64,000 nt of DNA from an uncultured Gammaproteobacteria bacterium (GTDB lineage: Bacteria > Patescibacteriota > Microgenomatia > UBA10105 > UBA927). The position numbers and the translations under genes are program-made. Under the pieces are notes generated by a model. That model ran no database searches. It saw nothing but the letters and a program-made list of their open reading frames with translations, and was not told the DNA's origin. Shown here piece by piece: positions 24,406-52,767 of the stretch (position 1 is its first letter; each line of letters starts with the position of its first letter). Location of the stretch: positions 22,038 through 86,037 of the forward strand of contig CAZVTT010000003.1 of the NCBI GenBank assembly GCA_964629685.1. Reading direction: 5' to 3'.

Positions 24406-24406
24406 C

Positions 24407-25516
24407 ATGAAAACTCATACTACTTCTCTTCTTTCGTTCATTGCGTTAGGTATCATTGCGGGAATGATATTTGCCGTTAAGCCACAACTGGTTGATGCTG
24501 CCTGCAATCTGAACAACACGTTTAAAGGAAACGTTACCATTTCCGCCAACTGTACTATAGATGCCAATACTATCGAAGGATTGGATCAGGCTCAGGGAAC
24601 CGAAGGACAAACGACCAACGCTGCAGTGCTCACGGTTAACAATAACGCCACCCTTACCATTGCCGCAGGTACTACCCAAACTACCACGGTTATTCCCGGA
24701 ACCATAGTGCTTACCGGAGGCGGTAGAGTCAGTATGGCAAATAGTAACACCAGAATTCTCACCAATTCCCCAACCTGGATTGGAGACCGTGACGCAGATG
24801 GTTATATGGCCAGCGCAACGGCATTTGCATCAACTGCGAGTGCCAGACGCCGCAGGGGACTCATGCGGGATTCCACCAACGACTGTAACGATGTTTCGTA
24901 TCATATGTATAACGTATGTTATGCGTATGGACAGGGCTACTATCAGGCGTATTACTACGGCTATGGTCAGGGCTACTATCAGGCGTATTACTACGGCTAT
25001 GGCCAAGGCTACTATTACGGCTACGGTCAGGGGTACTATTATGGCTACGGCCAAGGCTACTATTACGGCTACGGTCAATCCTGGTATTACGGCTACGGTC
25101 AATCAGCCTACTACTGTTTCCTGGAAGATACAGAAATCCTCATGGCAGACGGATCACGGAAGGCAATTAAAGACGTCCATGTCGGCGATATGGTGCAATC
25201 ATATGACACTGCTACCGGATCATTTAAGGCAGACCGTGTAGTCGCTCACATCGTTCACCCACAGGTAGACGGAACGTATCTTACGGTAAACGGCAATCTG
25301 CACGTAACGGCAAACCATCCGGTCTATATCAACGGGTCGTGGCAGGACATGGGTAATGCTCGAGTCGGTGACACCCTGGTCAATGACGCAGGACAAACGG
25401 TCACGATCACCTCCATTACCGAATCTGAACCGGGTATTCATGATCTGTATAACCTGCACCTCGCAGGAAAAGATCATAACTACTTCGCCGAAGGCGTGTT
25501 GGTTCACAACAAATAA
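24407..25516 (+). CDS. Secreted protein: signal anchor, Thr/Asn-rich beta-rich region, Tyr/Gly-rich tandem repeat, C-terminal Hint (bacterial intein-like) domain
   Basis: Track ORF starts at 24386. The Met at 24407 (MKTHTTSLLSFIALGIIAGMIFAV) follows the upstream stop directly. Hint block A is CFLEDTEILMADGSRKAIKDVHVGDMV (Cys codon at about 25115). TxxH block is LHVTANHPVYI. Terminal block is NYFAEGVLVHNK followed by stop. Confidence 0.7.
   Translation: MKTHTTSLLSFIALGIIAGMIFAVKPQLVDAACNLNNTFKGNVTISANCTIDANTIEGLDQAQGTEGQTTNAAVLTVNNNATLTIAAGTTQTTTVIPGTIVLTGGGRVSMANSNTRILTNSPTWIGDRDADGYMASATAFASTASARRRRGLMRDSTNDCNDVSYHMYNVCYAYGQGYYQAYYYGYGQGYYQAYYYGYGQGYYYGYGQGYYYGYGQGYYYGYGQSWYYGYGQSAYYCFLEDTEILMADGSRKAIKDVHVGDMVQSYDTATGSFKADRVVAHIVHPQVDGTYLTVNGNLHVTANHPVYINGSWQDMGNARVGDTLVNDAGQTVTITSITESEPGIHDLYNLHLAGKDHNYFAEGVLVHNK
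24926..25113 (+). repeat. In-frame tandem repeat of 24-33 nt encoding about 7 copies of YGYGQGYY(QAY)Y
   Basis: tacggctatggtcagggctactat(caggcgtattac) reiterated with synonymous variation immediately before the Hint Cys codon. Coordinates by eye. Confidence 0.7.
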
Positions 25517-29960: not shown

Positions 29961-31079
29961 TTACTTCAGACAACTGGCCATATCCCCCGCAGGAAGCGCA
30001 GCGCAGAAAGGCTGGCGCAAATCCGTACCATATACATAGGCAACTTTCTGCCCTAATTCGGAAAAACACAAGCTACGCTGATTTCCGGTAAGTAACGTAC
30101 AAAGGGCAATACTGTGATCCGCTTTCGCGTTGGTAATCACATCGGACTGAATACTACCCCGGATGCAGGAATCCACCAGCTCCGGACGTAATCCTGCACA
30201 AAATTCAAATATTCGGCCGGCGTCTCCGTCCACCTGAAAATAATACATATTCGCTAAACTTACCAGGCAGTCGGGTCGGTCCTTCTGCTCCACCGCCATA
30301 CACTCACGCAATGCCTGCTGTTCGTCACGCAATCTGCTGATGCTGTTTTCACCCGTCTGTTTTGCACAAACGGATGCATACGTACCCGGAACATCCTTAC
30401 AGAATGACTGCATTCCTGCATACGCTACGGGCCCGGGTTCACTGTCTGTCCCGATCATTTCCATAAACACACCCGCCGCACACCGTTCACTGTCCGGTAC
30501 ATCTCCGAGTTCGCCGCAGTAATCCAACGCTGTATTTACCGTGTAGGATGCTAATTCTGCCATTGCATGACCAAGCCCATGAATACATGCGTCATACGTT
30601 TGAGGTGGATATCCGTGCTTAAGCGATGCACATACCCCGGGAATGCTTTTCCGATCAAACCGCTGCCGCTTCATATAGGCAAACAAAGCTCCGTGTGTAC
30701 ACCCAAAACCGCAGGCACTACTGCAGGACACAACCACCGAACCGATAGGGGTACCTTTTTCCACCTCCGCTTCCCCGACCAGATGCGCCAGGTCATGACA
30801 ACTTACCCAGCCTGCTTCACCGGCGTACTCCCGTTCCCGAAAAGCCAGTTCAAGTGCCGGAAGAATTTCACTTTGGTTATATTTCCGGACGAGCGGCGTT
30901 ATTTTCGCTTTTATGCACGCAGCCCGGATATGTTGATCCCGGCATGATACCAATACCTCCGTTATGGCATCCGAAAGAGAAGTACCGGTTGTATTCTGAT
31001 ACCGTACCCATAAATATCCGGACATCATAAGCATCCCAATGATCAATACCAAACGGATAGCAGTGAATGTATACCGCAT
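29961..31079 (-). CDS. CH-family secreted Cys/His-rich repeat protein (subfamily F)
   Basis: 372 aa. Anchor AIRLVLIIGMLMMSGYLW. Motifs SCHDLAHLVG, CGFGCTHGALFAYM, ACIHGLGHAMAEL. 18 nt downstream of the membrane-protein gene 31098..32765. Confidence 0.6.
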   Translation of the reverse strand: MRYTFTAIRLVLIIGMLMMSGYLWVRYQNTTGTSLSDAITEVLVSCRDQHIRAACIKAKITPLVRKYNQSEILPALELAFREREYAGEAGWVSCHDLAHLVGEAEVEKGTPIGSVVVSCSSACGFGCTHGALFAYMKRQRFDRKSIPGVCASLKHGYPPQTYDACIHGLGHAMAELASYTVNTALDYCGELGDVPDSERCAAGVFMEMIGTDSEPGPVAYAGMQSFCKDVPGTYASVCAKQTGENSISRLRDEQQALRECMAVEQKDRPDCLVSLANMYYFQVDGDAGRIFEFCAGLRPELVDSCIRGSIQSDVITNAKADHSIALCTLLTGNQRSLCFSELGQKVAYVYGTDLRQPFCAALPAGDMASCLK

Positions 31080-31097: not shown

Positions 31098-32765
31098 TTA
31101 TTTTCTGAATAACTCCACCGCTGAAAGCGTATACCCGTTATGCGCCACAGTTGTTGTATTCCCGAGAGCATATTCCCCGATTATTTTGCCCAGCGGTTCA
31201 TCATTATGCATATTGGGGTACAGAATCAAAAAGGCCTGTGCTGGCATCTCCGTCAATAGCTGGGCCGGTGTCCGGATGTTTATGGGTACTGCGTGTTCTC
31301 CTTTTAATTTCCGGCGCCCTGTTTGTTTATCGATATATTTATAGTCATCAAAATCCAACACCGTCCAGGTAAACTGTTCATGTACTACATATATTTTTTC
31401 AGTACCCAACTGTCGGATCAGGTCTTCCGTCAGAAACGGGAGTTCCATAAATTCAGCGTTATATACCAGCTCGTCTTTTCCGTATCCGTTGTCTGGGTGG
31501 GTAAATGTACTCATAGCCAGCAGTGTATGATTTCCGAAGGTGAAGGTCCCGAACACTGCGCGGGAAACCGGATCTATAGTCCGGTAAAACGATGCATATA
31601 TCCCGGCCAACAAAACCACCAACGTTGCAATTCGGACTACCCTGTTCCGGAACAAATATATCCAGGCATCGGCAAATACCATAACCCCTATCGGTACCAG
31701 CGGCAGCATATACCGCGGATTATTTACGAACTTTATTCTGGTTATACAGATAGTTTCCGCAACCAAAAGCAGAAAACAAAACATCACCCAACGCTTGTCT
31801 TCATGGGTACGTACTGCTTCCGTTTTTGTTTTGCCGATCCAGTGGGTACACCCCCGCAGCATACCGGCTACTAAAACCGCAGCCGTCATTATCCAGGAAA
31901 AATTTAACACGTATGCCACCAAAGTTTGCCCCAGAAAAAATCCGTCAAACTGCCGGGCAGCGGCCACGGTTTTCATCACACTGAGCCAAGTCGTATCCCC
32001 CGAAGGCAAATGCGGGAAAGGGGGTTTTATCTGCATATACCAAAGCAATAACAACGGTGGAATGGTAAATATCCACCAGGGAATCCGGTTCCCCCCGTTA
32101 TGGGGGTCGGATTTTCCCCGTAAGAAGGCAACGAATCCAAACACGGAAATAATTATCCCGTAATATACGGCACCGGTTTCTTTACTGAAAATCAGCAGGA
32201 GTCCGAATATTCCTGCCAGGATATACTTCCGGAAAAACAGCGCCGTAATGAAATATAAAGAAAAAACTGCCAGCGGTAAATCCAGACTCGGCTGTAACAA
32301 CTGTGCCAAGAGAATCGGATTAAAACCGAAAACGAACGTATACAAATCAATTTCACTTCCGGATATACGCGGATAAAATACTTTCCCCAGCACGCTGCGC
32401 AGACACAGTAAACCACCGATTACCAGCAGTAATGCTGTCACCTGTACCGATAATACGTTTCCCGATGCCACAAACTGCGACACCGAAAATAAACCTACCG
32501 AAGCAAGAGAATTATGACCATCGCACTGCAGCATTCCCGTAACGGGAACCTGCTGGTAACAACGGAAGAACACCCAACTATCCCAAACGGGTAAAACATT
32601 TGCATACGGCAGAACCGTACCGATCAGTACGAGCGTTAATACTCCAAAAAGCCAATACTCACGCAGAACCGCAGCAAAAAAACTGCGTATAACAACCTTC
32701 CGGTGTGCGGCTTTGCTCACATTCACAATGTTCAACCTAAGGACAGGAAATATGTACGGCGTCAA
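31098..32765 (-). CDS. Polytopic membrane protein (GT-C-like), co-directional with CH gene 29961
   Basis: 555 aa with more than 12 hydrophobic helices. Overlaps the upstream gene by 29 nt. Confidence 0.45.
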   Translation of the reverse strand: MTPYIFPVLRLNIVNVSKAAHRKVVIRSFFAAVLREYWLFGVLTLVLIGTVLPYANVLPVWDSWVFFRCYQQVPVTGMLQCDGHNSLASVGLFSVSQFVASGNVLSVQVTALLLVIGGLLCLRSVLGKVFYPRISGSEIDLYTFVFGFNPILLAQLLQPSLDLPLAVFSLYFITALFFRKYILAGIFGLLLIFSKETGAVYYGIIISVFGFVAFLRGKSDPHNGGNRIPWWIFTIPPLLLLWYMQIKPPFPHLPSGDTTWLSVMKTVAAARQFDGFFLGQTLVAYVLNFSWIMTAAVLVAGMLRGCTHWIGKTKTEAVRTHEDKRWVMFCFLLLVAETICITRIKFVNNPRYMLPLVPIGVMVFADAWIYLFRNRVVRIATLVVLLAGIYASFYRTIDPVSRAVFGTFTFGNHTLLAMSTFTHPDNGYGKDELVYNAEFMELPFLTEDLIRQLGTEKIYVVHEQFTWTVLDFDDYKYIDKQTGRRKLKGEHAVPINIRTPAQLLTEMPAQAFLILYPNMHNDEPLGKIIGEYALGNTTTVAHNGYTLSAVELFRK

Positions 32766-40782: not shown

Positions 40783-42338
40783 TTCCTCTTCCAGAACGTA
40801 TCTCCCCAGCCTTCTACCGGTTCGTAATTATTCTGTATATAAATTCTGTCTGCATGCGACAATGAATACATTCTGCGTGAATCACTTTGATATATGTACG
40901 GCACCTGCTTTTCTTCCAGTCGCTGGGCTACCGGTGGAGGTTTTATACTCATATACTCCATAAACCCGCCGAACGGGACACAGCAGATATCATAACCGTC
41001 CTTCCAAAACACCATCCGGCCTTCCAGATCAAATACCGGAACATTTTTCGGTACCGTTTGCGTCAGTAACCGCAATTGCCGCAACTGATCTTCGTTGGAC
41101 CACGAAAGTTTTACCGAATTTACCTGCGGCGTAATCCAGATACACAAACCTGCTACCACTATCAGCAGTCCCACTTCCGCCCACTTACCCACCTTCAAGT
41201 TTAACCAGGTCAATATCCCTTCCAATCCGTCTGCGGCGTAAAACGCCACAAATACGGCAATGGGAATTAAATACTGACTGTGTTTCATGGGATAAAACAT
41301 CACGTACAGCGCGGAAAGCAACATAAACGACCCTGCCATCAGCACTTCCCCGATTACCTGTTTTCTGTCTCCGTCAGCAGTCACGAACGGCGTAAACAGC
41401 CGCACGATTCCTACCACAATCCCAAAGGCCCAGATGGCATGATTTGCCAGGTATCCGTTGGTTAATCCGGGAGCACCATAGAACGATCCGTTCGGGAAAA
41501 AGAACAGATGCGGCTCCATAATATAAAATTTTGATATTTTATTTGCTTCAAACGGCAGCAGGGTGAGCGAATACCACACCTGTCCGAAATCTCCGAGCGT
41601 CAGCAACCACAGGAACAGTATTCCCATCGACCCAGCAAACCCACCGACAAACCACCAGAGCGGAGACTGCACTATGCGTTTAAACACATCCCCCGCTCCG
41701 TCGCCGCTTTTCCGGAACGAAAACCACCAGAAATATAATGCCGCTCCGGCAAAAGAAACCACGGTAAACGGTATGGTCTTGGGAAATACGATCAGCGAAA
41801 GCGCTTGTGATATGCCAGCTCCCAACCACAGATACCGGGCCCGTTTGGATACCGACATACCGGCATACACCTGAAACGCCACACCCAATACCGCAAATAC
41901 CGTAGACAAATTATCCGGCCGGATTTCTACGAGTTTGTCGTAGGGCATAGGCAAAAATGCCAATAAAACCAAAGGAAGCAATGCATACTTCCACGAACGC
42001 AATTTTCCATAGAGCGCGCTCACCACAATCAGCAACGCAATAAATATAATCAGCGCCAGCACTCTTCCACCCACGAAAATGTTCGGATCTCCGGGGAATA
42101 TCCAAAACAGCGGCAGAAAGAAGAACAAAAACCCTGGCGGAAAAAACATGAAATAATCGACATACGGTCGCTGCCCCGCGGCTAAATTTCCCACCCAGTG
42201 CAGATACGAAAATTCATCTATATCAAAAAAACGGGTCATGCCGACGTTTAGTTTCCATACCAACAGAAACCCTAACGTAGCAAGTAAAATTCCGTGTATC
42301 ACCAGCGGCAGAAACCGGTATAAACCCTTCATGTCCAT
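40779..42338 (-). CDS. GT-C-like polytopic membrane protein
   Basis: 519 aa. First-loop acidic motif TRFFDIDEFSYLHW. More than 10 TM helices. Confidence 0.45.
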   Translation of the reverse strand: MDMKGLYRFLPLVIHGILLATLGFLLVWKLNVGMTRFFDIDEFSYLHWVGNLAAGQRPYVDYFMFFPPGFLFFFLPLFWIFPGDPNIFVGGRVLALIIFIALLIVVSALYGKLRSWKYALLPLVLLAFLPMPYDKLVEIRPDNLSTVFAVLGVAFQVYAGMSVSKRARYLWLGAGISQALSLIVFPKTIPFTVVSFAGAALYFWWFSFRKSGDGAGDVFKRIVQSPLWWFVGGFAGSMGILFLWLLTLGDFGQVWYSLTLLPFEANKISKFYIMEPHLFFFPNGSFYGAPGLTNGYLANHAIWAFGIVVGIVRLFTPFVTADGDRKQVIGEVLMAGSFMLLSALYVMFYPMKHSQYLIPIAVFVAFYAADGLEGILTWLNLKVGKWAEVGLLIVVAGLCIWITPQVNSVKLSWSNEDQLRQLRLLTQTVPKNVPVFDLEGRMVFWKDGYDICCVPFGGFMEYMSIKPPPVAQRLEEKQVPYIYQSDSRRMYSLSHADRIYIQNNYEPVEGWGDTFWKRK

Positions 42339-42400
42339 TCATTGTAGCAAACTAATCCCACTGTTTACTCTAGTAAAAATACACAGGGAGTATCCGGTAT

Positions 42401-42564
42401 TTAAGGGGTATACGCATGTGCATTTTTTGCGCCCTTCGAGACCACTTCAGGGTAAAAATGCAAAGGCGCCTTCAACAGAAATATTGGGGGTACGCGTAGT
42501 GATTTTTTCACGCCCTTCGATAATACTCAGGGTAAAGAATGAAAAGCCCACACAATTCTAAAAA
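42401..42564. repeat. Intergenic repeat, module B in two tandem copies (locus a)
   Basis: ggggtatacgcatgtgcattttttgcgcccttcgagaccacttcagggtaaaaatg.. then gggggtacgcgtagtgattttttcacgcccttcgataatactcagggtaaagaatgaaaagcccacacaattct. The same module is present at 51748..51829. Confidence 0.6.
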
Positions 42565-42674
42565 GGAGAGTGGTGCAGGGATTTTTACGAAGAGTTACAG
42601 GCGATTAACAACGGGTGGTAGTGGTCAACGGTACTTGAGTCCAACGATGAGTAAAAAACTCTGCACCGCTCTCC
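42565..42674. repeat. Intergenic repeat, module A (locus a): 14-bp terminal inverted repeats enclosing about 82 nt
   Basis: ggagagtggtgcag...ctgcaccgctctcc. Near-identical copies at 45973..46079 and 51830..51938. The interior gggatttttacgaagagttacaggcgattaacaacgggtgg..cggtacttgagtccaacgatgagtaaaaaact is conserved. Confidence 0.65.
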
Positions 42675-42731
42675 GTCACTCCAATATCCGATGACGAGCC
42701 CAAAATGACACCCGCTTCTCGCCTTCCCCGC

Positions 42732-43097
42732 TTACCCTTCCCACGGACTCATTAACTGGAACAAATTCCCGTCCGGATCGGCAAACGTCGCGATCAGCAT
42801 CGGTTGTTTCGGATCCATCTGGTACGGCTCTTTTATTACGGTAGCACCCAGGGCTTTGATCCGGTCAAATTCTTTTTGCACTTCCTTCGTTTCAAAGTTA
42901 ATAATAATCCGGTCTGCGTCCTTGGCTTTTCCGTGAATTTTGTCATGCAACCCTATTCCCAAAAACATCGGGCCCACGTTAAATCCATACCAGTCGCCAT
43001 CTACCATATCCGGTTTCTTATCAAGCACCTTCTCATAAAACTCCGCCATTACCTTTGGTTGGTCGGAACTCATCATCATCGAATTCAGGTTTAACAT
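42732..43097 (-). CDS. VOC (glyoxalase/bleomycin-resistance) family protein
   Basis: 121 aa. DGDWYGFNVGPMFLGIGLHD...GATVIKEPYQMD..ATFADPDGNLFQL, which is the typical VOC fold signature. Confidence 0.6.
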   Translation of the reverse strand: MLNLNSMMMSSDQPKVMAEFYEKVLDKKPDMVDGDWYGFNVGPMFLGIGLHDKIHGKAKDADRIIINFETKEVQKEFDRIKALGATVIKEPYQMDPKQPMLIATFADPDGNLFQLMSPWEG

Positions 43098-43242
43098 ATT
43101 TGCCCCTCCCTTATGTGCTTACCCTACCTGTTTTTCGCGATAACCACAACCCCCAAATGTAATATGGATTACAAATATTAGAGAACGAACTGAAGTGATA
43201 CAATACAATCGTTTTCAACCGTGCAGCACACGAACGCTATAT

Positions 43243-43665
43243 ATGAACTTTGACCATGGCATCCCTCCCAATCCCTATAATCCCCATGCCTGGATACTGG
43301 GTGCTCCCGTTATCGGCGAAGGCACCTGGATCGGCGCATTTACGCTGGTGGATGCGCTGCATGCTGGTGTAACCATCGGAAAAGGCTGCAACATCAGCAG
43401 CGGCGCACAAATTATTTCCCACTCCACCGTTCACCGTTGTATCAGCGAACGCAAATACCCGCACATCGACCACGCCGATGTACATATAGAAGACTATTGC
43501 TTTATCGGCACGAACGCGGTAGTTTTGATGGGGTGCACGATCGGCCATCACAGTGTGATCGGCGCCGGCAGCGTTATACCGGAAAACACAGTTATACCGC
43601 CCTACTCTGTCGTTACCGGCGTACCGGGAAAAGTAACCGGCTCGAGCAAAAAATTTACAAAATAA
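43243..43665 (+). CDS. Hexapeptide-repeat (left-handed beta-helix) sugar N/O-acetyltransferase
   Basis: Track ORF starts at 43195. Met at 43243 (MNFDHGIPPNP). Hexapeptide pattern GEGTWIGAFTLVDALHAGVTIGKGCNISSGAQII...IGTNAVVLMGCTIGHHSVIGAGSVI. Confidence 0.65.
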   Translation: MNFDHGIPPNPYNPHAWILGAPVIGEGTWIGAFTLVDALHAGVTIGKGCNISSGAQIISHSTVHRCISERKYPHIDHADVHIEDYCFIGTNAVVLMGCTIGHHSVIGAGSVIPENTVIPPYSVVTGVPGKVTGSSKKFTK

Positions 43666-43701
43666 TAGTACCTAAAAGGGAATACGGCAGTTCACGGGTG
43701 A

Positions 43702-43764
43702 CTTCCGACGGGGAGCCCCGCCAGCCGGGGTCCCCTTGCGGGTGGATGCGGGGCTGTCGGAAGG
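43702..43764 (+). other. GC-rich imperfect hairpin (about 16 bp stem with 4-nt bulge, 26-nt loop) in the acetyltransferase-aminotransferase spacer
   Basis: cttccgacGGGGagccccgc ..loop.. gcggggctgtcggaag. No trailing U-tract. Coordinates by eye. Confidence 0.5.
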
Positions 43765-43781
43765 CAGGACCCGTACAACAT

Positions 43782-44909
43782 ATGAATATTCCCGTAGCCA
43801 AACCATACTTTACCAAAGAAGACCAACAGGCAGTTGCAGATGTGGTCGCATCCCGCTGGGTGCTGCAAGGCCCCAAAGTACTGGAATTCGAAAAACTCCT
43901 GGCAGAGTATATCGATACGCCGTATGCCGTAGCTACTTCGTCCGCCACCACTGCACTGCTCATGTCATTACTCATACTAAAAATCGGACCCGGAGATGAA
44001 GTTCTGGTCCCCTCCTTCTCCTACATTGCCAGTACCAACTGTGTGGTACATGCCGGTGCCACGCCGGTGTTCGTCGATATAGACGCACGTACATATAATA
44101 TTGATCCGCAGGATATAGAGAAAAAAATCACAAAAAAAACCAAAGCCATTCTCGTGGTCCATCAAATCGGTCTGATGGCCGATATGAAACCCATTATGGC
44201 CATCGCCAAAAAACATAATCTGCGGGTTATAGAAGATGCGGCTTGCGCCCTGGGAGCCACTGCATACGGAAAAAACGCCGGAACCGTCGGCGATATCGGC
44301 GCCTTCTCTTTCCATCCCCGTAAATGTATAACCACTGCTGAAGGCGGATTATTAACTACCAAGAAAAAAACCTGGTTTGAAACGGCCAAAATGCTGCGGG
44401 CACATGGCGCTTCCGTATCCGTTATAGATCGCCATGCCAGTAAAACCATTGTGTTTGAAGAATACCCCATCGTAGGGTACAACTTCCGCATGTCCGATAT
44501 TCATGCAGCTCTCGGCGTTTCCCAATTTAAAAAAATAGATAAAATATTTTCCCGCCGCCAGGAAATAGCCGCCCGGTATACCAACGCATTTAAAGATTAT
44601 CCGCACATTGTCCCGCCGTATATTCCGCCGAAATTCCATCATACATTTCAGACCTACATGATCCGGCTTCCCGGTGGTGCCAAAATCCGGGACAAGGTTA
44701 TGCAGGCATTACTGGAAAAAGGCATTTCCACCCGCCGCGGTATTCCCGGCGCGCATCTGGAACCGCCATACCGTCATTTAAAAACGAAACTACCGGTTAC
44801 GGAACTGGCATCCCGAGAAACCATCATGCTCCCCATATTCACGGAACTTACCAACGAAGAACAGGATTTCATTATCGACAATATTATAAAAGAGGTTAAG
44901 AAAAGCTAA
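43782..44909 (+). CDS. DegT/DnrJ/EryC1/StrS-family PLP-dependent sugar aminotransferase
   Basis: Track ORF starts at 43437. Met at 43782 (MNIPVAKPYFTKEDQQAV). ATSSATTALLMSL. GDEVLVPSFSYIASTN. FSFHPRKCITTAEGG, which contains the Lys-bearing motif. Confidence 0.8.
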   Translation: MNIPVAKPYFTKEDQQAVADVVASRWVLQGPKVLEFEKLLAEYIDTPYAVATSSATTALLMSLLILKIGPGDEVLVPSFSYIASTNCVVHAGATPVFVDIDARTYNIDPQDIEKKITKKTKAILVVHQIGLMADMKPIMAIAKKHNLRVIEDAACALGATAYGKNAGTVGDIGAFSFHPRKCITTAEGGLLTTKKKTWFETAKMLRAHGASVSVIDRHASKTIVFEEYPIVGYNFRMSDIHAALGVSQFKKIDKIFSRRQEIAARYTNAFKDYPHIVPPYIPPKFHHTFQTYMIRLPGGAKIRDKVMQALLEKGISTRRGIPGAHLEPPYRHLKTKLPVTELASRETIMLPIFTELTNEEQDFIIDNIIKEVKKS

Positions 44910-44961
44910 CTTCTGTTGCTGATTGCCCGAATTATACATATTGGACAATTAACAACCTACT

Positions 44962-45948
44962 ATGAATCTCACCAACTCGAACATTTTAGTTACCGGAGGT
45001 GCCGGATTTATCGGCTCCCATACGGCTATAACATTGGCGAAGAATAACACCGTTACCGTATTGGACACATTTGATTCTGCAGTACGTACTGCGGCGGAGT
45101 TAAAACAAGCAGGTATTTCGGTGGTGAAAGGTTCGGTACTCGATCCGAAAGTAATCGACCGTACGGTAAAAAAAGCCGACGTGATTATTCATATGGCGGT
45201 TGCCTGTGTACGCCTGTCGCTCAACCATCCCATGGAAGTCCACCACGTAAACGTTACCGGCGCGCTGACCTTGCTTATGGCTGCCCAAAAACACCACACC
45301 AAACGGATAGTCATAATTTCTTCTTCGGAAGCATACGGCTCGGCTTCGCAGGGACTCATCGGGGAAAATCATGACATGGACCCGGTTACGGTATATGGCA
45401 TGAGTAAGTACATGTCGGATCTGTATGGCCAGTTATATTATCGGCACATGAAACAACCGGTCGTTACCGTGCGACCGTTTAACACCTATGGACCATACAG
45501 TCACTTCGACGGTGTATACGGAGAAGTAATCCCCCGCTTTGTAATCCGCGCCCTCGCCGGCAAACAAGCCACTATTTATGGTGACGGATCGCAATCCCGC
45601 GATTTTACCTATATTTCCGATACGGTAAACGGCGTTATCGCCGCCGCGGAAGAAGATTCACTTATCGGCCAAACCATAAACATAGCCCGGGGTCAGGAAG
45701 TATCCGTTAAACGGATTGCGGAAATTGTCTGCCAACACACCGGCTTACCATTTGAGCCGATCATGCTCCCCTCCCGTCCCAACGACGTCATGAGACACGC
45801 AGCGGATACCAAAAAAGCCAAAAAACTTCTTGGCTATTCACCGGAAGTATCCATAGACGAAGGACTGAAAACATATATCGACTGGGTAAAAACCACCTAC
45901 CCCGATACCAAACAACTCCTCAAATACGTCCCAAAAACGAATTGGTAA
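44962..45948 (+). CDS. NAD-dependent epimerase/dehydratase (SDR, GalE/UDP-sugar 4-epimerase-like)
   Basis: ILVTGGAGFIGSH. YGMSKYMSDLYGQ (YxxxK). Confidence 0.75.
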   Translation: MNLTNSNILVTGGAGFIGSHTAITLAKNNTVTVLDTFDSAVRTAAELKQAGISVVKGSVLDPKVIDRTVKKADVIIHMAVACVRLSLNHPMEVHHVNVTGALTLLMAAQKHHTKRIVIISSSEAYGSASQGLIGENHDMDPVTVYGMSKYMSDLYGQLYYRHMKQPVVTVRPFNTYGPYSHFDGVYGEVIPRFVIRALAGKQATIYGDGSQSRDFTYISDTVNGVIAAAEEDSLIGQTINIARGQEVSVKRIAEIVCQHTGLPFEPIMLPSRPNDVMRHAADTKKAKKLLGYSPEVSIDEGLKTYIDWVKTTYPDTKQLLKYVPKTNW

Positions 45949-45972
45949 CTGTTAACACAATCCTTAAACGTG

Positions 45973-46079
45973 GAGCGGTGCAGGGATTTTTACGAAGAGT
46001 TACAGGCGATTAACAACGGGTGGTTATGGATAGCGGTACTTGAGTCCAACGATGAGTAAAAAACTCTGCACCGCTCTCC
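45973..46079. repeat. Intergenic repeat module A (locus b), upstream of 46185
   Basis: ggagcggtgcag...ctgcaccgctctcc. The 5' arm differs from locus a by an indel/substitution that turns the G-U wobble into a C-G pair. The flanking tail gtcactccactttccgatgacg..cccgcttctc is shared with locus a. Confidence 0.65.
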
Positions 46080-46184
46080 GTCACTCCACTTTCCGATGAC
46101 GTTTAAAAAATGATACCCGCTTCTCTCCCCGCCACACCCACCCTTTTCCTTGAATAATCGCGTAATTCCCCCTATCATAATTTC

Positions 46185-47807
46185 ATGTCGTTGAAGAAAA
46201 TGCTCGCTCAGGAAATGCCCATGCTCCTCGTTATTTTCCTGCTCTTTGTGCAAGTGTGCGTGTACTTTTTTGTTACCAACCGTCCCAACACCATTGCCCC
46301 TTCCGGCCACGAATATACCGTACTCGGTAAAAACTTTTACTATCCCTCCATGATTTACCAGGCCAAAGACGGAGCCTGGGGCGTCGTCGATACTCATACC
46401 ACCCGCCCTACCCCCATGGTATTTGTCGAAGTGTTTTTCGTCTTTCTGGGGAAAATCGCGGCTCTCCTTAACATCGTACCCGTGCAAATGTACATTATCG
46501 CGCAGGTTCTTGGCGGCGTATTGGTGTTTGCCCTTACCTATTGGCTCATTACCCTACTCCTTCCCAAAGCAATCCACCTCTATGCGCTCTTTTTTGCTCT
46601 AGCCCTGGAAACCGGACCACTCGTAACCACGCTAGACCGGGCCTTTTCGCTTTGGGAACCGTCATTCCCCAGCCATGTCCTTTTTGACCGTCATTTCGGA
46701 TTACCCCATCATACCTGGGGTGAAGCAATAGGCATGTTGTATATCGGCGTACTCTGGGTAACGGTAAAAAAACCCACACCACTGCGCATTATCGCTCTTA
46801 TACTCCTCGCATTACTTGCCACTACGGTACTGCCGCCGTATATGGTCACCTTCGGCATGACGTCTATGGCAATTTGGGCTGTCTGGAGTATTTTCACCAA
46901 ATCATTCAGCAAAGTATTCCCGCCATTTCTGTTGTCCGCTTTAGCCGTCGGTGCCGCCGGATTCCTTATAAAATTGGAATTTGCCAAAGGCATACCCTGG
47001 GACTCCTGGCAGGCGGCAGAAAAAAGCTGGTGGACGCACCAACTGTTACTCACCCAATATGCCTCCACACTTCTCCTCTATTATCCCTTCATTGTATTGG
47101 CAATGATTATGACACTGCTGCGCTGGAAACATTGGACATCACACCTAAAACTGATTATCTTCATGATGCTCGCCTGGGTCTTCGGACCGTATATTTTAGT
47201 CCCGTTCTCCCATTACTCCTGGTTCCCGGTCGCCAACTTCCGCATGACCGATGGCTACCAATATTTACCCGCCGGGATACTGGCAGGTATAGGGGTCTGG
47301 CAGTTGTTACAAACACTTCCGGCAAAACTCCGCGGCGGAACTAAAATTGTTTTGCTCGGTTCGATCACCATCGTCTCACTCGTCTTTTCTTACGTCTTTA
47401 CCACACAAGTGTTAAACGCCCAGAAAAACTTTTGGAGCAATATGTACCCGCAGAAAAGCACGATGGATGGTGTCCGGTTTGTGGATACATTACCCAAACG
47501 CAGCGGCATTATGGTACGTGAATATTTTGGAGAAATACTTCCCGGGTTTGCCAACGTCCGCGTCTTTATCGGCGGCCCTCACGGCTTCCCCGATTGGGGC
47601 GAACGGCAATGGATTTCCCAGCGCTTCTTCTCGGGAGAATATACCGAAGAAGAAGCCATCAGGACGCTTAAGGATAACGATATATCGTACGTCTTTTACG
47701 GACCGGATGAACAGGCACTCAATACGACCGGCACACTGTACCCCACGGTACTTACGGAAATATTTGCAAATCCAACCGTCCGGGTTTTCAAAGTAAACAC
47801 AAACTAG
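46185..47807 (+). CDS. Polytopic membrane protein, C-terminal YxFYG[PF][DE]E family (GT-C-like)
   Basis: 540 aa with about 12 TM helices. C-terminal EEEAIRTLKDNDISYVFYGPDEQALNTTGTLYPTVL..VRVFKVN shared with 56003, 58697 and 60313. Confidence 0.5.
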   Translation: MSLKKMLAQEMPMLLVIFLLFVQVCVYFFVTNRPNTIAPSGHEYTVLGKNFYYPSMIYQAKDGAWGVVDTHTTRPTPMVFVEVFFVFLGKIAALLNIVPVQMYIIAQVLGGVLVFALTYWLITLLLPKAIHLYALFFALALETGPLVTTLDRAFSLWEPSFPSHVLFDRHFGLPHHTWGEAIGMLYIGVLWVTVKKPTPLRIIALILLALLATTVLPPYMVTFGMTSMAIWAVWSIFTKSFSKVFPPFLLSALAVGAAGFLIKLEFAKGIPWDSWQAAEKSWWTHQLLLTQYASTLLLYYPFIVLAMIMTLLRWKHWTSHLKLIIFMMLAWVFGPYILVPFSHYSWFPVANFRMTDGYQYLPAGILAGIGVWQLLQTLPAKLRGGTKIVLLGSITIVSLVFSYVFTTQVLNAQKNFWSNMYPQKSTMDGVRFVDTLPKRSGIMVREYFGEILPGFANVRVFIGGPHGFPDWGERQWISQRFFSGEYTEEEAIRTLKDNDISYVFYGPDEQALNTTGTLYPTVLTEIFANPTVRVFKVNTN

Positions 47808-47840
47808 ACGCAAATTACAAAATCCATACGATCCTAAAAA

Positions 47841-48040
47841 GGAGAGTGGCGCGGGGGTTTTTACGAAGCCTGCCTGCCGAAGCTTTAGCGCAGGTGGGAT
47901 TTACAGGCGACTCTTACACATTGCTAAGAGGTAAACGCATGTCATTTTTTTGCGAGTGAAAAGGCGCGGGGAATTGTCTAATTTTTATGCCACCCAGGAC
48001 TGAGTCCGACGAGCAGAAAAAATGGATATGCGTGTACCCG
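47841..48040. repeat. Intergenic repeat (locus c), diverged mosaic of modules A and B
   Basis: ctaaaaaggagagtggcgcgggggtttttacgaag...ttacaggcgactcttacacattgctaagaggtaaacgcatgtcatttttttgcg...ggactgagtccgacgag. Recognisably related to loci a, b and d. Confidence 0.5.
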
Positions 48041-48078
48041 CCCCCACGTTCCAATAACAAGTAATACATGATATTCGC

Positions 48079-49611
48079 TTGCAGCAACTCTTAAAAAATT
48101 ACAAAATATACACTATGCACAAACTGAAACCATTACTATTAATTATTCTTGGTAGCTTCATCGGCATCGCCTGCATAGCCCTAGCCGTTACCATCGGGGT
48201 ATTTGATATCCCCGACTCCTTCTTTTACGCCACATTGGCCCAATACTTTTATACCGGCGAAGTGTTCCCCATACAGCCATTTAACCTGTACAAACCGCAA
48301 ACCCTCTTCGGTCCGGTGTACGGACTCATTGTCGTCCCGCTCATTTCCCAGCCATGGCCGTTCGGCATGGTCATGGTGCCGCTCCTGCAACTCCTATTAC
48401 TCGTTATCGGTGCCACACTCATGTACCTGCTCATGAAAAAACACCTCCCGCGTCCCTGGCCGTTCATTACTGCGGCGGTCTACGTGTTGCTGCCGTTCCA
48501 GATTATTTACGCCACCTTTATGATGTCGGAAACGCTTACGGCTACGTTATTGTTACTCTGGATCGTTATTCTGGACGGCTGGTTAAACGGCAAAAAATGG
48601 TCCCACCCCGCACTACTGGTTTTAGTCGCTGCCGTGGCCACCCTTACCCGCTACGTCTTTCAGATGCTGTTTTATATTTCGCTCGCAATCTGGATCTGGG
48701 ACACCCTCCACCTTACCCGTTTTTTACCAAAATTCCTTTCCCATCTGCACATGCTGGCACCCTACAAAAAACGCCTGGCAGTATTGCACCTCCCTGCACT
48801 GGTAGGTATCGGTATTATCGCCGGCTGGATGTACTTTAATTTCCGGATCAACGACGTGTGGGCGCTTTCCATTCTGCAGGGACGGCATATTTACAACAAC
48901 GTGGTTACGGTGGGACACTTTCTTCCACCCGACGATCACCCCATTATGAAGTTTTTCCTGGAACGGTATGGCCGCTGGGGTGCGGGAAAAGAGGTTATGT
49001 ATGACCCGTGGTGGGATGTGCAGCTCATATTAAATGACGGCATTATTCCCGAATGGAAAGTAGACCAGCTCTATCGCGATTTGAGTCTGGCAGCAATCAA
49101 AACCCACCCGATACCCTACGCGCTGCACGTAGCACGGATGACGTACAACATCGCTACCACCGCACCATATCACCCGGAAGGATTCGTGGAAAAACTCAAT
49201 ACCTGTTCGCAGGATGTTACGGTAAATCCGCCGGTGCCTATTTGTCGGTTTAAATGGAATAAATATTTATGTGAACCCGCTGTACGGGCATGCGGCGCGC
49301 AATCCGCCTTCGCCACCTTCGCTACCGCCAGTATTAACTTTTATCCCGTCGGAGGGGCAATCCTTTATCTGCTTTCCGGTATCGGCATTATCGTCAGTTT
49401 GCTGAAGCGTAAGCCATTTTTCATCTGGGTATCCGGACTCTTTGCTATCCAACACGTATTGGCATCCGCCACCGAATGGGTCGAAGGAAGATTCCTCATC
49501 CCCCTCTATCCCCTGTATGCGATCCTGATCGTGGTAGCGGTACAGTGGATCTGGCAATATACCACCAACCATCGACGGAAAGATAATTCGCTTGAATTTA
49601 ACTGCGGTTGA
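48079..49611 (+). CDS. Polytopic membrane protein (GT-C-like)
   Basis: 510 aa with about 12 TM helices. Acidic first-loop motif GVFDIPDSFFYATLAQ. Alternative start at the Met at 48115. Confidence 0.45.
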   Translation: MQQLLKNYKIYTMHKLKPLLLIILGSFIGIACIALAVTIGVFDIPDSFFYATLAQYFYTGEVFPIQPFNLYKPQTLFGPVYGLIVVPLISQPWPFGMVMVPLLQLLLLVIGATLMYLLMKKHLPRPWPFITAAVYVLLPFQIIYATFMMSETLTATLLLLWIVILDGWLNGKKWSHPALLVLVAAVATLTRYVFQMLFYISLAIWIWDTLHLTRFLPKFLSHLHMLAPYKKRLAVLHLPALVGIGIIAGWMYFNFRINDVWALSILQGRHIYNNVVTVGHFLPPDDHPIMKFFLERYGRWGAGKEVMYDPWWDVQLILNDGIIPEWKVDQLYRDLSLAAIKTHPIPYALHVARMTYNIATTAPYHPEGFVEKLNTCSQDVTVNPPVPICRFKWNKYLCEPAVRACGAQSAFATFATASINFYPVGGAILYLLSGIGIIVSLLKRKPFFIWVSGLFAIQHVLASATEWVEGRFLIPLYPLYAILIVVAVQWIWQYTTNHRRKDNSLEFNCG

Positions 49612-49661
49612 AGCAACGCGCCTCTCAACCCTCTCTCACCACGCTTGCCGACTAGCCATAC

Positions 49662-50762
49662 CTACAACAAGGAAACCAACTGCTTAAAGATAAATATTTT
49701 TCCTTTCTTGAGACCGGAAACTTCGACAATATAACCCAGCCTGTCTAACTCCCTCAGCAAACGAATAATAGTCGCACCATGCGCTTTGAGTTCATCTGCT
49801 GCCTGATTTATTTTAAAAACCGGCTGCTTAAACATGAAGTCAATTAAACGAACCATATAGGGAGACTTTAGCTGCACGGTTCGTTCAAGCAGCTCATCAT
49901 GTAAAGAAATTATTTTGTTTATTAACTCACCTGTCGCCTGAGCCTGGGCAATAACCGCTCGCAGGAAATAAGCAACCCATGGGTCGTAAACTCCACTCTG
50001 ATCGACAGAATGTAGTGCCTCTAAATATTTGTCTTTTTCCGCATCAAAGAACCCACTGAGATATAGTATCGGTAAATTCAATCGACGCCGGGAAAATAAG
50101 AATAAAGGGATAAGTAATCTCCCAATTCTACCGTTACCATCATAAAATGGATGAATCGCTTCAAATTGATAATGTATTAACGCTGCTTGAACTAGTGCAT
50201 CTTCATTGTCGAAATGAAAATAAGATTCAAGATTTGCCATATAGTCCGGAACCTTTTCCCAAGAGGGTGGTACGTATGTTGCCTGTTCGATCGGACTATT
50301 GGGCACCCCAATCCAGACAGGTTCTTTTCTAAACTCACCCCTTGATGCGTTCCCGCGGGTATCCGTTAACAGAATGTTGTGGACTGTCTTTATTAAATTC
50401 AGACTGATGGGCCTCTTCGATAATTCCTCCATTGCGTGATACATTGCCTTTTTATAGTTCGACACCTCAATAACGTCGCTATGCTTTGTAATGCCACCTG
50501 CTTCATGCATATAAACATCTTTTACAGTACTTTGCGTACCCTCTATCTTGGAACTTACCGTGGCTTCTTTTGTCGTAAGCGGAGCAATTAATAGGAGTGG
50601 ATTTTTCAGACTCTTTTGTAGTCCTTTTAATTCTCCGACAGTGTAGTTAGCCTGACTCATCAATAGAGCAAGGGAGTCGTAATTGACTTTTATTGGTAAC
50701 TTTTGGGGCTGATGGCATCTCATATTAGCCTCAAATATATCATGATAGTTGCAGAATGTCAA
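49662..50762 (-). CDS. Fic-domain protein (class II, with N-terminal inhibitory helix motif)
   Basis: Fic core HPFYDGNGRIGR at aa 204-215. Inhibitory [ST]xxxE[GN] motif SSKIEG at aa 70-75. AT-rich gene (about 38% GC). Confidence 0.8.
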   Translation of the reverse strand: MTFCNYHDIFEANMRCHQPQKLPIKVNYDSLALLMSQANYTVGELKGLQKSLKNPLLLIAPLTTKEATVSSKIEGTQSTVKDVYMHEAGGITKHSDVIEVSNYKKAMYHAMEELSKRPISLNLIKTVHNILLTDTRGNASRGEFRKEPVWIGVPNSPIEQATYVPPSWEKVPDYMANLESYFHFDNEDALVQAALIHYQFEAIHPFYDGNGRIGRLLIPLFLFSRRRLNLPILYLSGFFDAEKDKYLEALHSVDQSGVYDPWVAYFLRAVIAQAQATGELINKIISLHDELLERTVQLKSPYMVRLIDFMFKQPVFKINQAADELKAHGATIIRLLRELDRLGYIVEVSGLKKGKIFIFKQLVSLL

Positions 50763-50846
50763 TATTCTGCAATGATAATGCCGACATGTTGCATACCTGC
50801 AACATTGTTGTTTCTATCAATTTTTTTCGCGAACCACTTTATCCTA

Positions 50847-51632
50847 TCACCGTACCACACTTGCCGACCAGCCGTCGAATATCGATTCATATTTTCCCGC
50901 AAACGTTAACAACATATCCGTCTGAGTATTTATAGCTTCTAGCTCCATCGTCGCCGGAATATATACTTCCAGGGCATACGGAAATATTACTTCTTTATTT
51001 TCATATTCTTTTACCTCTTTCGGTTTCAAAGGCGATTTCCGCACGTCTGTCATAAAATTTTTGCGTTGTTCCGCAGTCTTAAAAAAATACAGATGTTCGA
51101 TGTTCCGGGATTGCTTTACATCATCCCCGCCCTCCACAAATTTCTGCACCAACCGTAGATTATGAAACTTTTGCCTTTCAGTTTTAGGCGGATACAGCAT
51201 AAAAAAATAACTTTTCCATTCCTGGTCTTCTTCCGCCTGAATTTTATAATCACAATCCTTGTACTGTTTCATCATTTGCTCTATTTTGGATTTTATTTTT
51301 TCCGGTTCACTGGTGAAAATGAAGAATAATTCTTTCCCGTCGTTATTTAATCTCCCTGCCAAATGCGCTTTCGTATTCTTAATTGCTTTGTAGATATTGG
51401 TTTCTACAGGGTATATCAGTTCATCAAATACTTCTTTTGTCGGAAAACCATTCCTGCTGGTTCCCAAATTCCGCAACGCCAAAACAACAGAAAAAGTATA
51501 CGTTTCGCCAAACGCATTGTACGCATTACAGTCAACCCAAATAGATGCCGGTTTATTACCTATATTCCGCATCCAAATACAATCATCAACCTGCACTGTG
51601 GGCTTCTTAAATACCTTGTCGAATATTCCCAT
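50847..51632 (-). CDS. Hypothetical cytoplasmic protein co-directional with and upstream of the Fic gene
   Basis: 261 aa with no TM helices. Lys/Glu-rich, AT-rich. 84-nt gap to the Fic gene. Confidence 0.45.
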   Translation of the reverse strand: MGIFDKVFKKPTVQVDDCIWMRNIGNKPASIWVDCNAYNAFGETYTFSVVLALRNLGTSRNGFPTKEVFDELIYPVETNIYKAIKNTKAHLAGRLNNDGKELFFIFTSEPEKIKSKIEQMMKQYKDCDYKIQAEEDQEWKSYFFMLYPPKTERQKFHNLRLVQKFVEGGDDVKQSRNIEHLYFFKTAEQRKNFMTDVRKSPLKPKEVKEYENKEVIFPYALEVYIPATMELEAINTQTDMLLTFAGKYESIFDGWSASVVR

Positions 51633-51699
51633 TCGTTCCTCTTGAAGCCCATTATACTCCCGCTGTCCATCTCACGTGCTTCAACCGAAGAGTAAAACC

Positions 51700-51938
51700 G
51701 AGTGTAGGTTTTTACGAGGAGTTACAAGCTATTCCTTACGCATTTCTAAGGGGTGCGCGCATGTGCATTTTTTGCGCCCTTCGAGACCACTTCAGGGTAA
51801 AGAATGAAAAGCCCACACAATTCTAAAAAGGAGAGTGGTGCAGGGATTTTTACGAAGAGTTACAGGCGATTAACAACGGGTGGTAATGGTTAACGGTACT
51901 TGAGTCCAACGATGAGTAAAAAGCTCTGCACCGCTCTC
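51700..51938. repeat. Intergenic repeat (locus d): A-fragment + module B + module A
   Basis: aggtttttacgaggagttacaagctatt.. + ggggtgcgcgcatgtgcattttttgcgcccttcgagaccacttcagggtaaagaatgaaaagcccacacaattct + ggagagtggtgcag...ctgcaccgctctc. The 3' arm overlaps the stop codon of 51937..52767. Confidence 0.65.
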
Positions 51939-52767
51939 ATCCTAACTCATCCAGAAACGCTTCCATCGTTTTCTGCGCTTCGAAACCCAATACCTTTTTC
52001 GCCTTCTCTACATTCATCCCGCTGGCGCGGGGTTTCGTGGTGTCTACCGGCGCATTCTGTACGGTAAATTCGTACCGTTCTTTTAGTAAAAGGACCAAGT
52101 CATTTAACGTATTCGCCTGCACATTTCCGATGTTAAACGTATCCGATTCTGAATACGAAAGCGCTTTCAGTAACGCCTGGCATACATCATCCACATGAAT
52201 AAAATTCCGCCGCTGATTCCCGTCTCCGGTTATCGTTACATTCCCCGATTCTTTTATGGACGTCAGCAAATCATACAGCACCCCGCGGTAATGCCCCGGT
52301 CCGTATACGTTGGAAAACCGCAAGATGACATAGTGCAGATCATCGGTACGGTGGTACCGCTGTATACACTCCTCTGCAAACAATTTGGTTAACCCGTAAT
52401 CACTTGTAGGGTGCGGTGTATCCGTTTCCGAAAATAATTCTCCGTTTTCACTCTCACCGTACACGATTCCGGTAGATGAATACAGCATCGTTTTTAATCC
52501 GTACGGAATACCGATTTCCAGAAGCTGCTGCGTCATGGTTACATTCTTTTCCAGCTGATGGGTAAACGGCGGACGCGATGTTCCCAGCAAATGAATCATG
52601 TGCGTAATCCGATTCGTTTGGAAATATTCCGTCACTGCCACCGGATCCAGTAAATTTCCCACAAAAGGTATAACCGTCTGTTCCGTTTCATTCAACAGTT
52701 TGGTTACATGCGTACCGATGAAGCCATCGCTACCGGTTATGCCGATACGAAAAGATGGGTTGTTCAT
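51937..52767 (-). CDS. NAD-dependent epimerase/dehydratase (short SDR-type)
   Basis: IGITGSDGFIGTHV. YGLTKLFAEEC (YxxxK). Confidence 0.65.
   Translation of the reverse strand: MNNPSFRIGITGSDGFIGTHVTKLLNETEQTVIPFVGNLLDPVAVTEYFQTNRITHMIHLLGTSRPPFTHQLEKNVTMTQQLLEIGIPYGLKTMLYSSTGIVYGESENGELFSETDTPHPTSDYGLTKLFAEECIQRYHRTDDLHYVILRFSNVYGPGHYRGVLYDLLTSIKESGNVTITGDGNQRRNFIHVDDVCQALLKALSYSESDTFNIGNVQANTLNDLVLLLKERYEFTVQNAPVDTTKPRASGMNVEKAKKVLGFEAQKTMEAFLDELG

Follow-up and report, generated by a model that had tools for sequence, protein, structure and literature searches.

We describe a family of hairpin-forming DNA repeats in a stretch of 64,000 nucleotides (the window; positions 22,038 to 86,037 of contig CAZVTT010000003.1, assembly GCA_964629685.1). 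The repeats occupy four intergenic spacers, here called loci a to d, which are all located inside one 9.6-kb block of a surface-glycan gene cluster. They have no coding capacity, can fold into hairpins, share one orientation, fold better on the plus strand and are absent from the orthologous spacers of relatives. Probably they are lineage-specific, non-autonomous repeats of the REPIN, BIME (bacterial interspersed mosaic element) or MITE (miniature inverted-repeat transposable element) type, which were recently inserted into four short spacers of a conserved cluster in a Gottesmanbacteria-like genome of the candidate phyla radiation (CPR).

The basic unit consists of two inverted arms of ~24 nt, each with a G+C-rich part and then a T run, around a core of ~60 nt that is able to form two small hairpins. 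The family has two arm types (A-type and B-type) and comprises full units, short units and solo arms, which lie side by side or nested in a mosaic that differs from locus to locus; the elements are 110-390 nt in size. An initial annotation of the window had offered three readings for these modules: small structured RNAs, MITE-like mobile elements or shared regulatory cassettes. A mobile or inserted repeat is favoured by the empty sites in relatives. For an RNA, there was no match in Rfam, and the base-pair change cited in its favour is one-sided; the orientation of the copies argues against a cassette.

Module A and its diverged relative

Module A was indeed found at three near-identical loci, with 91% identity between a and b, 96% between a and d and a per-column mean of 97% over the three copies. 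Its limits had to be amended: the copy at locus b begins at 45970 instead of 45973, and the copy at locus d ends at 51939, its final three bases TCA (51937-51939) being the TGA stop codon of a minus-strand epimerase-like gene (51937-52767). A 28-mer from the module A core occurs three times against none expected from shuffles, and the four loci match each other in blastn with E-values of 1e-39 to 1e-61. When each whole spacer was compared to the 64-kb window by sensitive blastn, only the other three spacers matched; an 11-mer sharing map of the window gave the same distribution, and neither blastn nor a covariance model detected a copy of the arms beyond the four loci within the window. The initial annotation had also noted fragments shuffled between modules, and this is borne out by TTTTTACGARGAGTTACARGC, which is present at 42582, 45987 and 51847 and as a solo copy at 51709 (four occurrences against none expected from shuffles).

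The terminal inverted repeats of module A are longer than the 14 bp originally reported. They form 16 bp, a 1x1 A.A mismatch and another 7 bp (GGAGAGUGGUGCAGGG-A-UUUUUAC / GUAAAAA-A-CUCUGCACCGCUCUCC), and the core enclosed by this stem measures 62 nt, not ~82 nt. The module begins with GGAGAG and ends with CTCTCC. Self-complementarity of the arm GGAGAGTGGTGCAGGGATTTTTAC is limited to TGCA, and each arm has the other as its sole pairing partner in the folds. The RNA folding energy is −44.6 to −46 kcal/mol with a z-score of about −5.6 (−5.56), none of 200 shuffles being equally good, and the long terminal stem is also significant as DNA (z −4.4). Eleven columns vary among the three copies, five of them crowded into 9 nt in the middle of the core. 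In the stem, pair 7/104 is U.G in a and d and C-G in b. This difference had been taken as a sign of conserved base-pairing; it exists, but the change is on one side only and hence is not evidence for covariation. A two-sided change is not seen in any stem pair when the three near-identical copies are compared.

Every unit has plus-strand orientation, even though the genes flanking a and d are on the minus strand and those flanking b and c on the plus strand. One orientation among the elements combined with two among the neighbouring genes speaks against a function linked to these genes. Those stem mismatches that are transitions are without exception G.U (G.T in DNA) on the plus strand and A.C on the minus strand, and for this reason the plus strand folds better. 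As RNA, the plus and minus strands reach −44.6 versus −34.8 kcal/mol for module A, −37.9 versus −28.7 kcal/mol for the diverged unit c_sub described below and −77.3 versus −62.1 kcal/mol for the whole locus c; the DNA fold gives −20.8 versus −13.6 kcal/mol. Overall, the advantage of the plus strand is 9-15 kcal/mol for RNA and 2-7 kcal/mol for DNA. The modelled energies, which differ by virtue of about five independent mismatches, point to the single-stranded plus strand, be it RNA or DNA, as the probable relevant species.

Locus c had been annotated as a simple diverged copy of module A at ~47841. Instead, it is a nested composite of an A-type 5′ arm, three inner hairpins including the full diverged unit c_sub, a degenerate 3′ arm of the A type and, last, a C-like tail; perfect 12-nt direct repeats (AAATTACAAAAT) spaced 284 nt apart are found at its borders. 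The unit c_sub is the top non-self match of the module A covariance model (16.6 bits, the whole window being scored without filters), a model that found no copy in the loci of the relatives. Its layout is that of module A, with a long terminal stem (13+9 bp arms) ending in a U/A run and two inner hairpins, and its arms are GGTAAACGCATGTCATTTTTT, the arm type that opens every B unit. The unit is about 40% identical to module A; both bases differ, with pairing retained, in 10-11 of the 22 pairs of the terminal stem, in an alignment that was fitted to the structure.

Orthologous spacers in relatives and searches elsewhere

Three syntenic relatives were found via a 540-aa membrane protein, with protein identities of 86% (L013), 75% (L014) and 63% (L015). 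The gene order is conserved in all three, and the colinear blastn alignment to the window breaks exactly at the elements. The spacer at locus a has 388 nt in the window and 39 nt in L014, the one at locus b 193 nt and 29 nt in L013, and the region at locus d, including an islet of foreign genes, 2404 nt and 130 nt in L013; the spacers of L014 at b, c and d are 44, 39 and 0 nt long. The repeats are therefore recent, lineage-specific insertions. Orthologous flanking DNA is 74-78% identical to that of L013, the closest relative, versus 91-96% among the copies of module A, and thus the family spread after the split from the closest sampled relative. Neither blastn nor the module A covariance model detected a unit in the locus of any relative, and no comparable inverted repeats are present there. 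Native promoter-like boxes upstream of the start codons are common to window and relatives and lie outside the repeats. In L013, the spacer equivalent to locus c (4890-4990) contains an unrelated element of its own, ~95 nt long with 11-12-nt terminal inverted repeats (CTGCCGGGAGT ... ACTACCCGGCAG).

The repeats are also reflected in short-read assemblies from five sequencing runs of the same population. The contigs are 100% identical to the window and end exactly 30 nt (k-1) past the last copy-specific base, as expected for true repeats.

An Rfam scan, which the initial annotation had suggested, gave no match in the window at the gathering threshold; at relaxed thresholds the best hits were chance matches (MIR533 with 18.5 bits, gathering threshold 80; sR44 with 19.3 bits, gathering threshold 45). 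Exact 21-mer scans yielded no match in GTDB genomes and none in IMG/VR, and distant blastn searches against phages and plasmids found none either. The same scan of JGI metagenomes returned four matches, which were rejected as chance: two are in coding DNA, and two belong to one CRISPR spacer (repeat GTTTCAATCCACGCACTCGTGAGAGTGCGAC; L004 843-876, L006 576-609). This spacer shares 21 of 34 nt with the degenerate arm pattern and 20 of 21 with the locus-c arm, which we likewise judged to be chance.

Locus anatomy and genomic setting

The units and accessory pieces of the four loci are listed in Table 1.

Table 1. Repeat units and accessory pieces at loci a to d, in window coordinates.
Locus	Feature	Position	Strand	Description
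a	Unit B1	42398..42483	+	Short hairpin unit; B-type arms (TATTTAAGGGGTATACGCATGTGCATTTTT / AAAAATGCAAAGGCGCCTTCAACAGAAATA) around small CCCT/AGGG hairpin
a	Unit B2	42484..42564	+	Diverged tandem B copy; terminates in pre-A box AAAGCCCACACAATTCTAAAAA (42543-42564)
a	Module A	42565-42674	+	110 nt; 16+7-bp terminal stem, two predicted inner hairpins, variable centre; covariance model 134 bits
a	Module C	42675..42731	+	Small CGTCA/TGACG hairpin and pyrimidine-rich tail; reaches stop codon (42732-42734) of minus-strand glyoxalase-like gene
b	Pre-A box (TAACACAATCCTTAAACGT)	45953..45969	+	Begins 5 nt past epimerase stop codon
b	Module A	45970-46079	+	5′ arm variant GUGGAGCGG; covariance model 128 bits
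b	Module C	46080..46145	+	Followed by native promoter-like TTGAAT-17-TATCAT (46150-46178) and ATG at 46185, common to relatives
c	Left copy of 12-nt direct repeat AAATTACAAAAT	47812..47823	+	Candidate target duplication
c	Pre-A box (CCATACGATCCTAAAAA) and A-type 5′ arm GGAGAGTGGCGCGGGGGTTTTTACGAAG	47824..47868	+	84% identical to 42543-42592; arm at 47841-47868
c	Inner pieces	47869..47930	+	30-nt extra hairpin (CCTGCCTGCC...GCGCAGG), A-core fragment ATTTACAGGCGA, D hairpin CTCTTA...TAAGAG (47911-47930)
c	Unit c_sub	47929..48039	+	111-nt diverged A relative; B-type arms, A architecture, core block CTGAGTCCGACGAGCAGAAAAAA
c	Degenerate A-type 3′ arm (CCCGCCCCCACGTTCC) and C-like tail	48037..48095	+	From alignment; outer stem recovered in 220-nt fold
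c	Right copy of AAATTACAAAAT	48096..48107	+	Native -10-like ATACACT directly after, then ATG at 48115
d	Solo fragment of A 5′ half (GTGTAGGTTTTTACGAGGAGTTACAAGCTATT)	51702..51733	+	From repeat finder and blastn
d	D hairpin (CCTTACGCATTTCTAAGG), unit B and pre-A box	51734..51829	+	From repeat finder, blastn and fold
d	Module A	51830-51939	+	Covariance model 132.7 bits

Module B was recovered by a repeat finder in tandem at locus a and as a single copy at locus d, in agreement with the initial annotation. The tandem copies (42415-42465 and 42496-42546) are 71% identical to each other; the single copy is at 51757-51829. The inverted repeat of B1 comprises 30 nt with 70% complementarity, and B1 is 88-92% identical to 51747-51812. 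Judging from its letters, B2 retains the small hairpins of B1 with altered stem bases, and what distinguishes the D hairpin stem of c from that of d (CCTTA...TAAGG) is one double change, C-G to T-A, read in the same way. Longer blocks are shared between loci: 42487-42673 is 92.6% identical to 51750-51938 in blastn, 42550-42723 (locus a) is 89% identical to 45955-46128 (locus b), and 47897-47954 (locus c) is 76% identical to 51718-51776 (locus d). A left junction of 50 nt is common to all four loci (repeat finder; region read 42200-52200). At locus b, the window-specific segment is 45953-46145. Altogether, the two related arm motifs occur about 14 times in direct and inverted orientation, and locus d holds the fullest string of modules.

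All units are located between open reading frames (ORFs); the stop codons at 42732 and 51937 are touched but intact. The neighbouring genes code for a glyoxalase-like protein, a hexapeptide acyltransferase, a DegT aminotransferase, two NAD epimerase-like proteins and GT2 glycosyltransferases; further neighbours are many polytopic proteins of 500-590 aa without Pfam match. The closest GTDB genomes are metagenome-assembled genomes of Candidatus Gottesmanbacteria / Patescibacteria, with about 55% protein identity. Across the window (1-64000), apparently polytopic membrane proteins are encoded by about 19 ORFs of ~490-590 aa, which are found on both strands and are interleaved with GT2 glycosyltransferase genes. 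This is an unusually large array of apparently related membrane proteins; four were scanned and none had a Pfam match.

In native cluster genes, the ATG is preceded at only 6-8 nt by a -10-like box (TGCTACAAT, TATCAT, ATACACT), and a Shine-Dalgarno sequence is lacking, both in the window (42344-42352, 46172-46184, 48105-48117) and at the equivalent positions of L013 and L014. This suggests that the native cluster mRNAs are leaderless or nearly so. By contrast, the foreign DUF695 gene described below has a GAGGA ribosome-binding site.

Loci c and d had been reported to bracket a Fic islet. However, a 498-aa membrane gene separates locus c from the islet, and only locus d abuts it. The islet (49612-51700) is low in G+C (0.37-0.40 versus 0.48-0.51) and carries on the minus strand a Fic/DOC gene (about 49662-50723) and a gene for a DUF695+RraB fusion (50847-51632). 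It is missing from all three syntenic relatives, in which the 49x-aa membrane gene directly precedes the convergent epimerase-like gene. For the DUF695 protein, only an identical protein from the same population was found at E<=1e-20 among 5.8 billion proteins. A 20-nt direct repeat (ACCACGCTTGCCGACTAGCC / ACCACACTTGCCGACCAGCC, 90%) at 49638-49657 and 50854-50873 flanks the Fic gene, its second copy being within the last DUF695/RraB codons; this repeat suggests that the Fic gene was inserted at the 3′ end of the DUF695/RraB gene with a local duplication.

Three further features were also seen. The spacer between the hexapeptide transferase and DegT genes (43666-43781) is G+C-rich, single-copy in the window and has long hairpin potential (CTTCCGACGGGGAGCCCCGC...GCGGGGCTGTCGGAAG), with RNA fold z-scores of −1.6 (plus) and −2.5 (minus). 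Because the counterpart genes of L013 and L014 abut or overlap at this site, it is another window-specific hairpin insertion, of a different family. A 21-nt inverted repeat (31004-31024 / 31269-31289; 95% complementary, 244 nt apart) spans the junction of the minus-strand ORFs 29961-31079 and 31098-32765 and has no sequence relation to the family described here. In ORF 24386-25516, tandem 36-nt and 12-nt repeats encode a Tyr/Gly/Gln-rich stretch (24926-25057), which is followed by a Hint/pretoxin-HINT domain.

Competing explanations and likeness to known systems

Some of these observations would also be expected if module A and its relatives were genes for small structured RNAs on the plus strand, or combined mobility with transcription. 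In that case, transcription would start at the foot of the stem from a weak promoter in the pre-A box, and the variable apex could be a targeting or binding loop. The confinement of transition mismatches to G.U on the plus strand and A.C on the minus strand, with better plus-strand RNA folding of A and c_sub, fits this explanation, as do the equal length and three-helix layout of these two units at about 40% identity and the focus of variation at the core centre. All four loci have a -10-like hexamer 8-9 nt before the first stem base, TACGAT at locus c and CACAAT at the other three, and native cluster genes carry similar boxes 6-8 nt before the ATG. On the other hand, no Rfam family was found at gathering or relaxed thresholds, the hexamer is accompanied neither by a -35 box nor by an extended -10, the promoter scan calls no site in the modules, and no U-run terminator follows the hairpin on the plus strand. 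Relatives at 86-63% protein identity do not have the elements, so there is no conservation marking a functional RNA, and truncated, solo and nested pieces are typical of decaying repeats. The paired changes between A and c_sub do not decide the matter, since covariation cannot tell RNA stems from co-evolving inverted repeats and the alignment was fitted to the structure. We consider RNA genes unlikely on this balance. Still less probable is a hitherto undescribed, CPR-specific class of hairpin elements that is mobile as well as expressed, in which a ~110-nt plus-strand RNA or single-stranded DNA with conserved three-helix layout, interchangeable arms and a hypervariable apex would be copied in fixed orientation and without target duplication by some enzyme, and may modulate the adjacent surface-glycan genes.

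The modules could alternatively be shared cis-regulatory cassettes, that is protein-binding sites or terminator/promoter blocks that coordinate the glycan cluster and spread locally by recombination or gene conversion instead of transposition. Their restriction to one 9.6-kb functional cluster within 64 kb would be in line with this, the about 14 direct and inverted arm motifs resemble binding-site arrays, and mosaic junctions such as A5′-D-B recur in c and d. In addition, the minus-strand hairpin of module A is followed by TTTTT at a and d, just downstream of minus-strand genes ending there. This terminator-like reading fits a and d but not b and c, the orientation relative to the flanking genes is inconsistent, and the terminator scan calls none of the hairpins. 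The promoters of native genes are found outside the repeats, and they are conserved in the relatives, whose gene cluster works without the cassettes. On the whole, a regulatory cassette is rather improbable. It is very unlikely that the repeats are scars left by the ends or attachment sites of some larger mobile element which brought the Fic and DUF695/RraB islet: the islet is absent from the three relatives, and locus d, with the fullest module string, is at its right edge and touches the stop codon of the next native gene, but the left edge (49612-49661) is without a module, the islet contains no integrase or recombinase, no repeat flanks the islet together with locus d, and no foreign genes are associated with a, b or c. 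The least likely possibility is that the modules code for small proteins. At locus a, module A is spanned by an ORF of 51 aa, and a, b and d have a minus-strand frame (..ESGAEFFTHRWTQVPL..TTRC*) without stops. Yet the former is broken in b and d, the latter lacks a start codon in d, where a TAG is located just upstream, and no Shine-Dalgarno sequence is present. The 51-aa product has no relative among 5.8 billion proteins, none of which shares even three of its 5-residue words. On neither strand do all copies have an open frame with a start codon, so that a coding function is effectively refuted and the modules are intergenic DNA as originally described.

The explanation that we prefer, insertion of non-autonomous hairpin repeats, has to be weighed against several observations. 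Loci a, b and d have no target-site duplication (no shared k-mer of at least 7 nt flanking them), and only locus c has a 12-nt direct repeat; therefore, a classical cut-and-paste MITE is ruled out and the mechanism is left to be inferred. A Pfam scan of 29 ORFs in the window revealed no transposase, integrase or RAYT domain, and the five runs, all identical to the window, showed no polymorphism by excision or insertion. As a rule, the copies of a mobile family are dispersed; here, three near-identical A copies and the diverged units are confined to 10 kb of the window, and the remaining 54 kb contain none. The strand asymmetry depends on only about five independent mismatches. The GC skew is negative across the whole window, the plus strand being C-rich, and, if the skew is read in the usual way, the better-folding plus strand is not the lagging-strand template preferred by IS200/IS605-type elements. 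Finally, units of REP (repetitive extragenic palindromic) DNA are palindromes, and the arms described here are not.

If the repeats were inserted as we propose, they would have spread as DNA, most likely via a folded single strand, with the help of a trans-acting enzyme whose gene is located in another part of the genome (of the HUH/Y1 type that moves REPINs and IS200/IS605 derivatives). Such a route would account for the strand-specific G.T pairs as well as for the absent target duplications and the common orientation. The modules may have been shuffled in part by local recombination or gene conversion. Effects on transcripts, for instance of the minus-strand hairpin and T5 behind the genes ending at a and d, would be a by-product.

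At present, the feature is unremarkable in kind, and it is the host that is unusual. The small, streamlined CPR genomes are usually called repeat-poor, and a recently expanded hairpin family shows that selfish intergenic elements are present there too. In practice, the repeats are a marker, since they break short-read assemblies of the lineage at predictable points. Should they be transcribed or be moved by a new enzyme, they would provide a compact model of hairpin-based mobility in an uncultured phylum.

Several known types of structured DNA or RNA were considered and rejected. For integron attC sites, the ends lack RYYYAAC ... GTTRRRY, the orientation to adjacent genes varies and the scanned ORFs contain no integrase domain. 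Intrinsic terminators, which are compact G+C-rich hairpins with a U run immediately behind them, are a less clear-cut case: the stem has no U run on the plus strand, but on the minus strand UUUUU follows it at two loci, a and d; the hairpin is far above the size limit of the scan and was not called. Hammerhead or other small ribozymes, tRNA-like, Y-RNA and 6S-like structures were without support from Rfam models. A pair of template and variable repeats from a diversity-generating retroelement was rejected as well, since the copies do not differ specifically at adenines, lie outside genes and are not accompanied by any reverse transcriptase that was seen.

With MITEs the family shares terminal inverted repeats, small non-coding size and presence or absence at orthologous sites. 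The likeness to a classical MITE is incomplete: duplication of the target at every copy and a partner transposase in the window were not found, and the mosaic, nested arrangement is not a discrete unit. Correia/NEMIS elements of Neisseria and ERIC/IRU elements of enterobacteria are MITE-like, about 100-155 nt long and have long terminal inverted repeats. The repeats described here resemble them in size, in the long terminal inverted repeat, in their intergenic position near gene ends, in presence or absence between relatives and in the potential to provide promoters, terminators or processed hairpins. Correia elements have well-defined ends and duplicate a TA target, whereas a, b and d are without duplication and the boundaries are mosaic. 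BIMEs of E. coli and the pneumococcal BOX elements (boxA-boxB-boxC) are intergenic mosaics of a few palindromic or non-palindromic modules in variable number and order. A mosaic of this kind, with one module in tandem (B here, boxB there), a position at gene ends and a possible effect on transcript ends, is also seen in the window, although here the modules nest, are confined to one small genome region and have no sequence relation to BIME or BOX.

Palindrome-associated elements derived from IS200/IS605 (PATEs) use single-strand HUH transposition (PMC6006769). Like them, the family lacks a terminal duplication, has one-strand hairpins and shows an orientation bias of its copies. PATEs have a separate subterminal hairpin at each end and a fixed 4-5-nt target by the left end; in the window, neither such a target nor a TnpA was identified. 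REPINs are REP doublets that form hairpins and are mobilised by RAYT transposases in Pseudomonas and Enterobacteria (PMC3116915, PMC3337134). The repeats differ from REPINs in that there are three to seven units instead of tens to hundreds, in the missing RAYT among the window ORFs, in the lack of sequence similarity and in the nesting of two arm types in one unit at locus c. In common with REPINs, they have inverted arms around a less constrained spacer that form one long hairpin, are extragenic and non-coding, and include solo decaying arms, higher-order clusters and several arm groups without target duplication (PMC3116915, PMC3337134). REPIN spacers vary in a similar manner (PMC3337134) to the core seen here, where nine central positions hold 5 of the 11 variable columns. 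By this analogy, the best-supported account likens the family to REPIN-type elements in behaviour; we do not file it as a REPIN because the arms are not palindromes and a RAYT was sought only within 64 kb. The feature is real, non-random and well delimited, and it represents a new sequence family of a known general kind.

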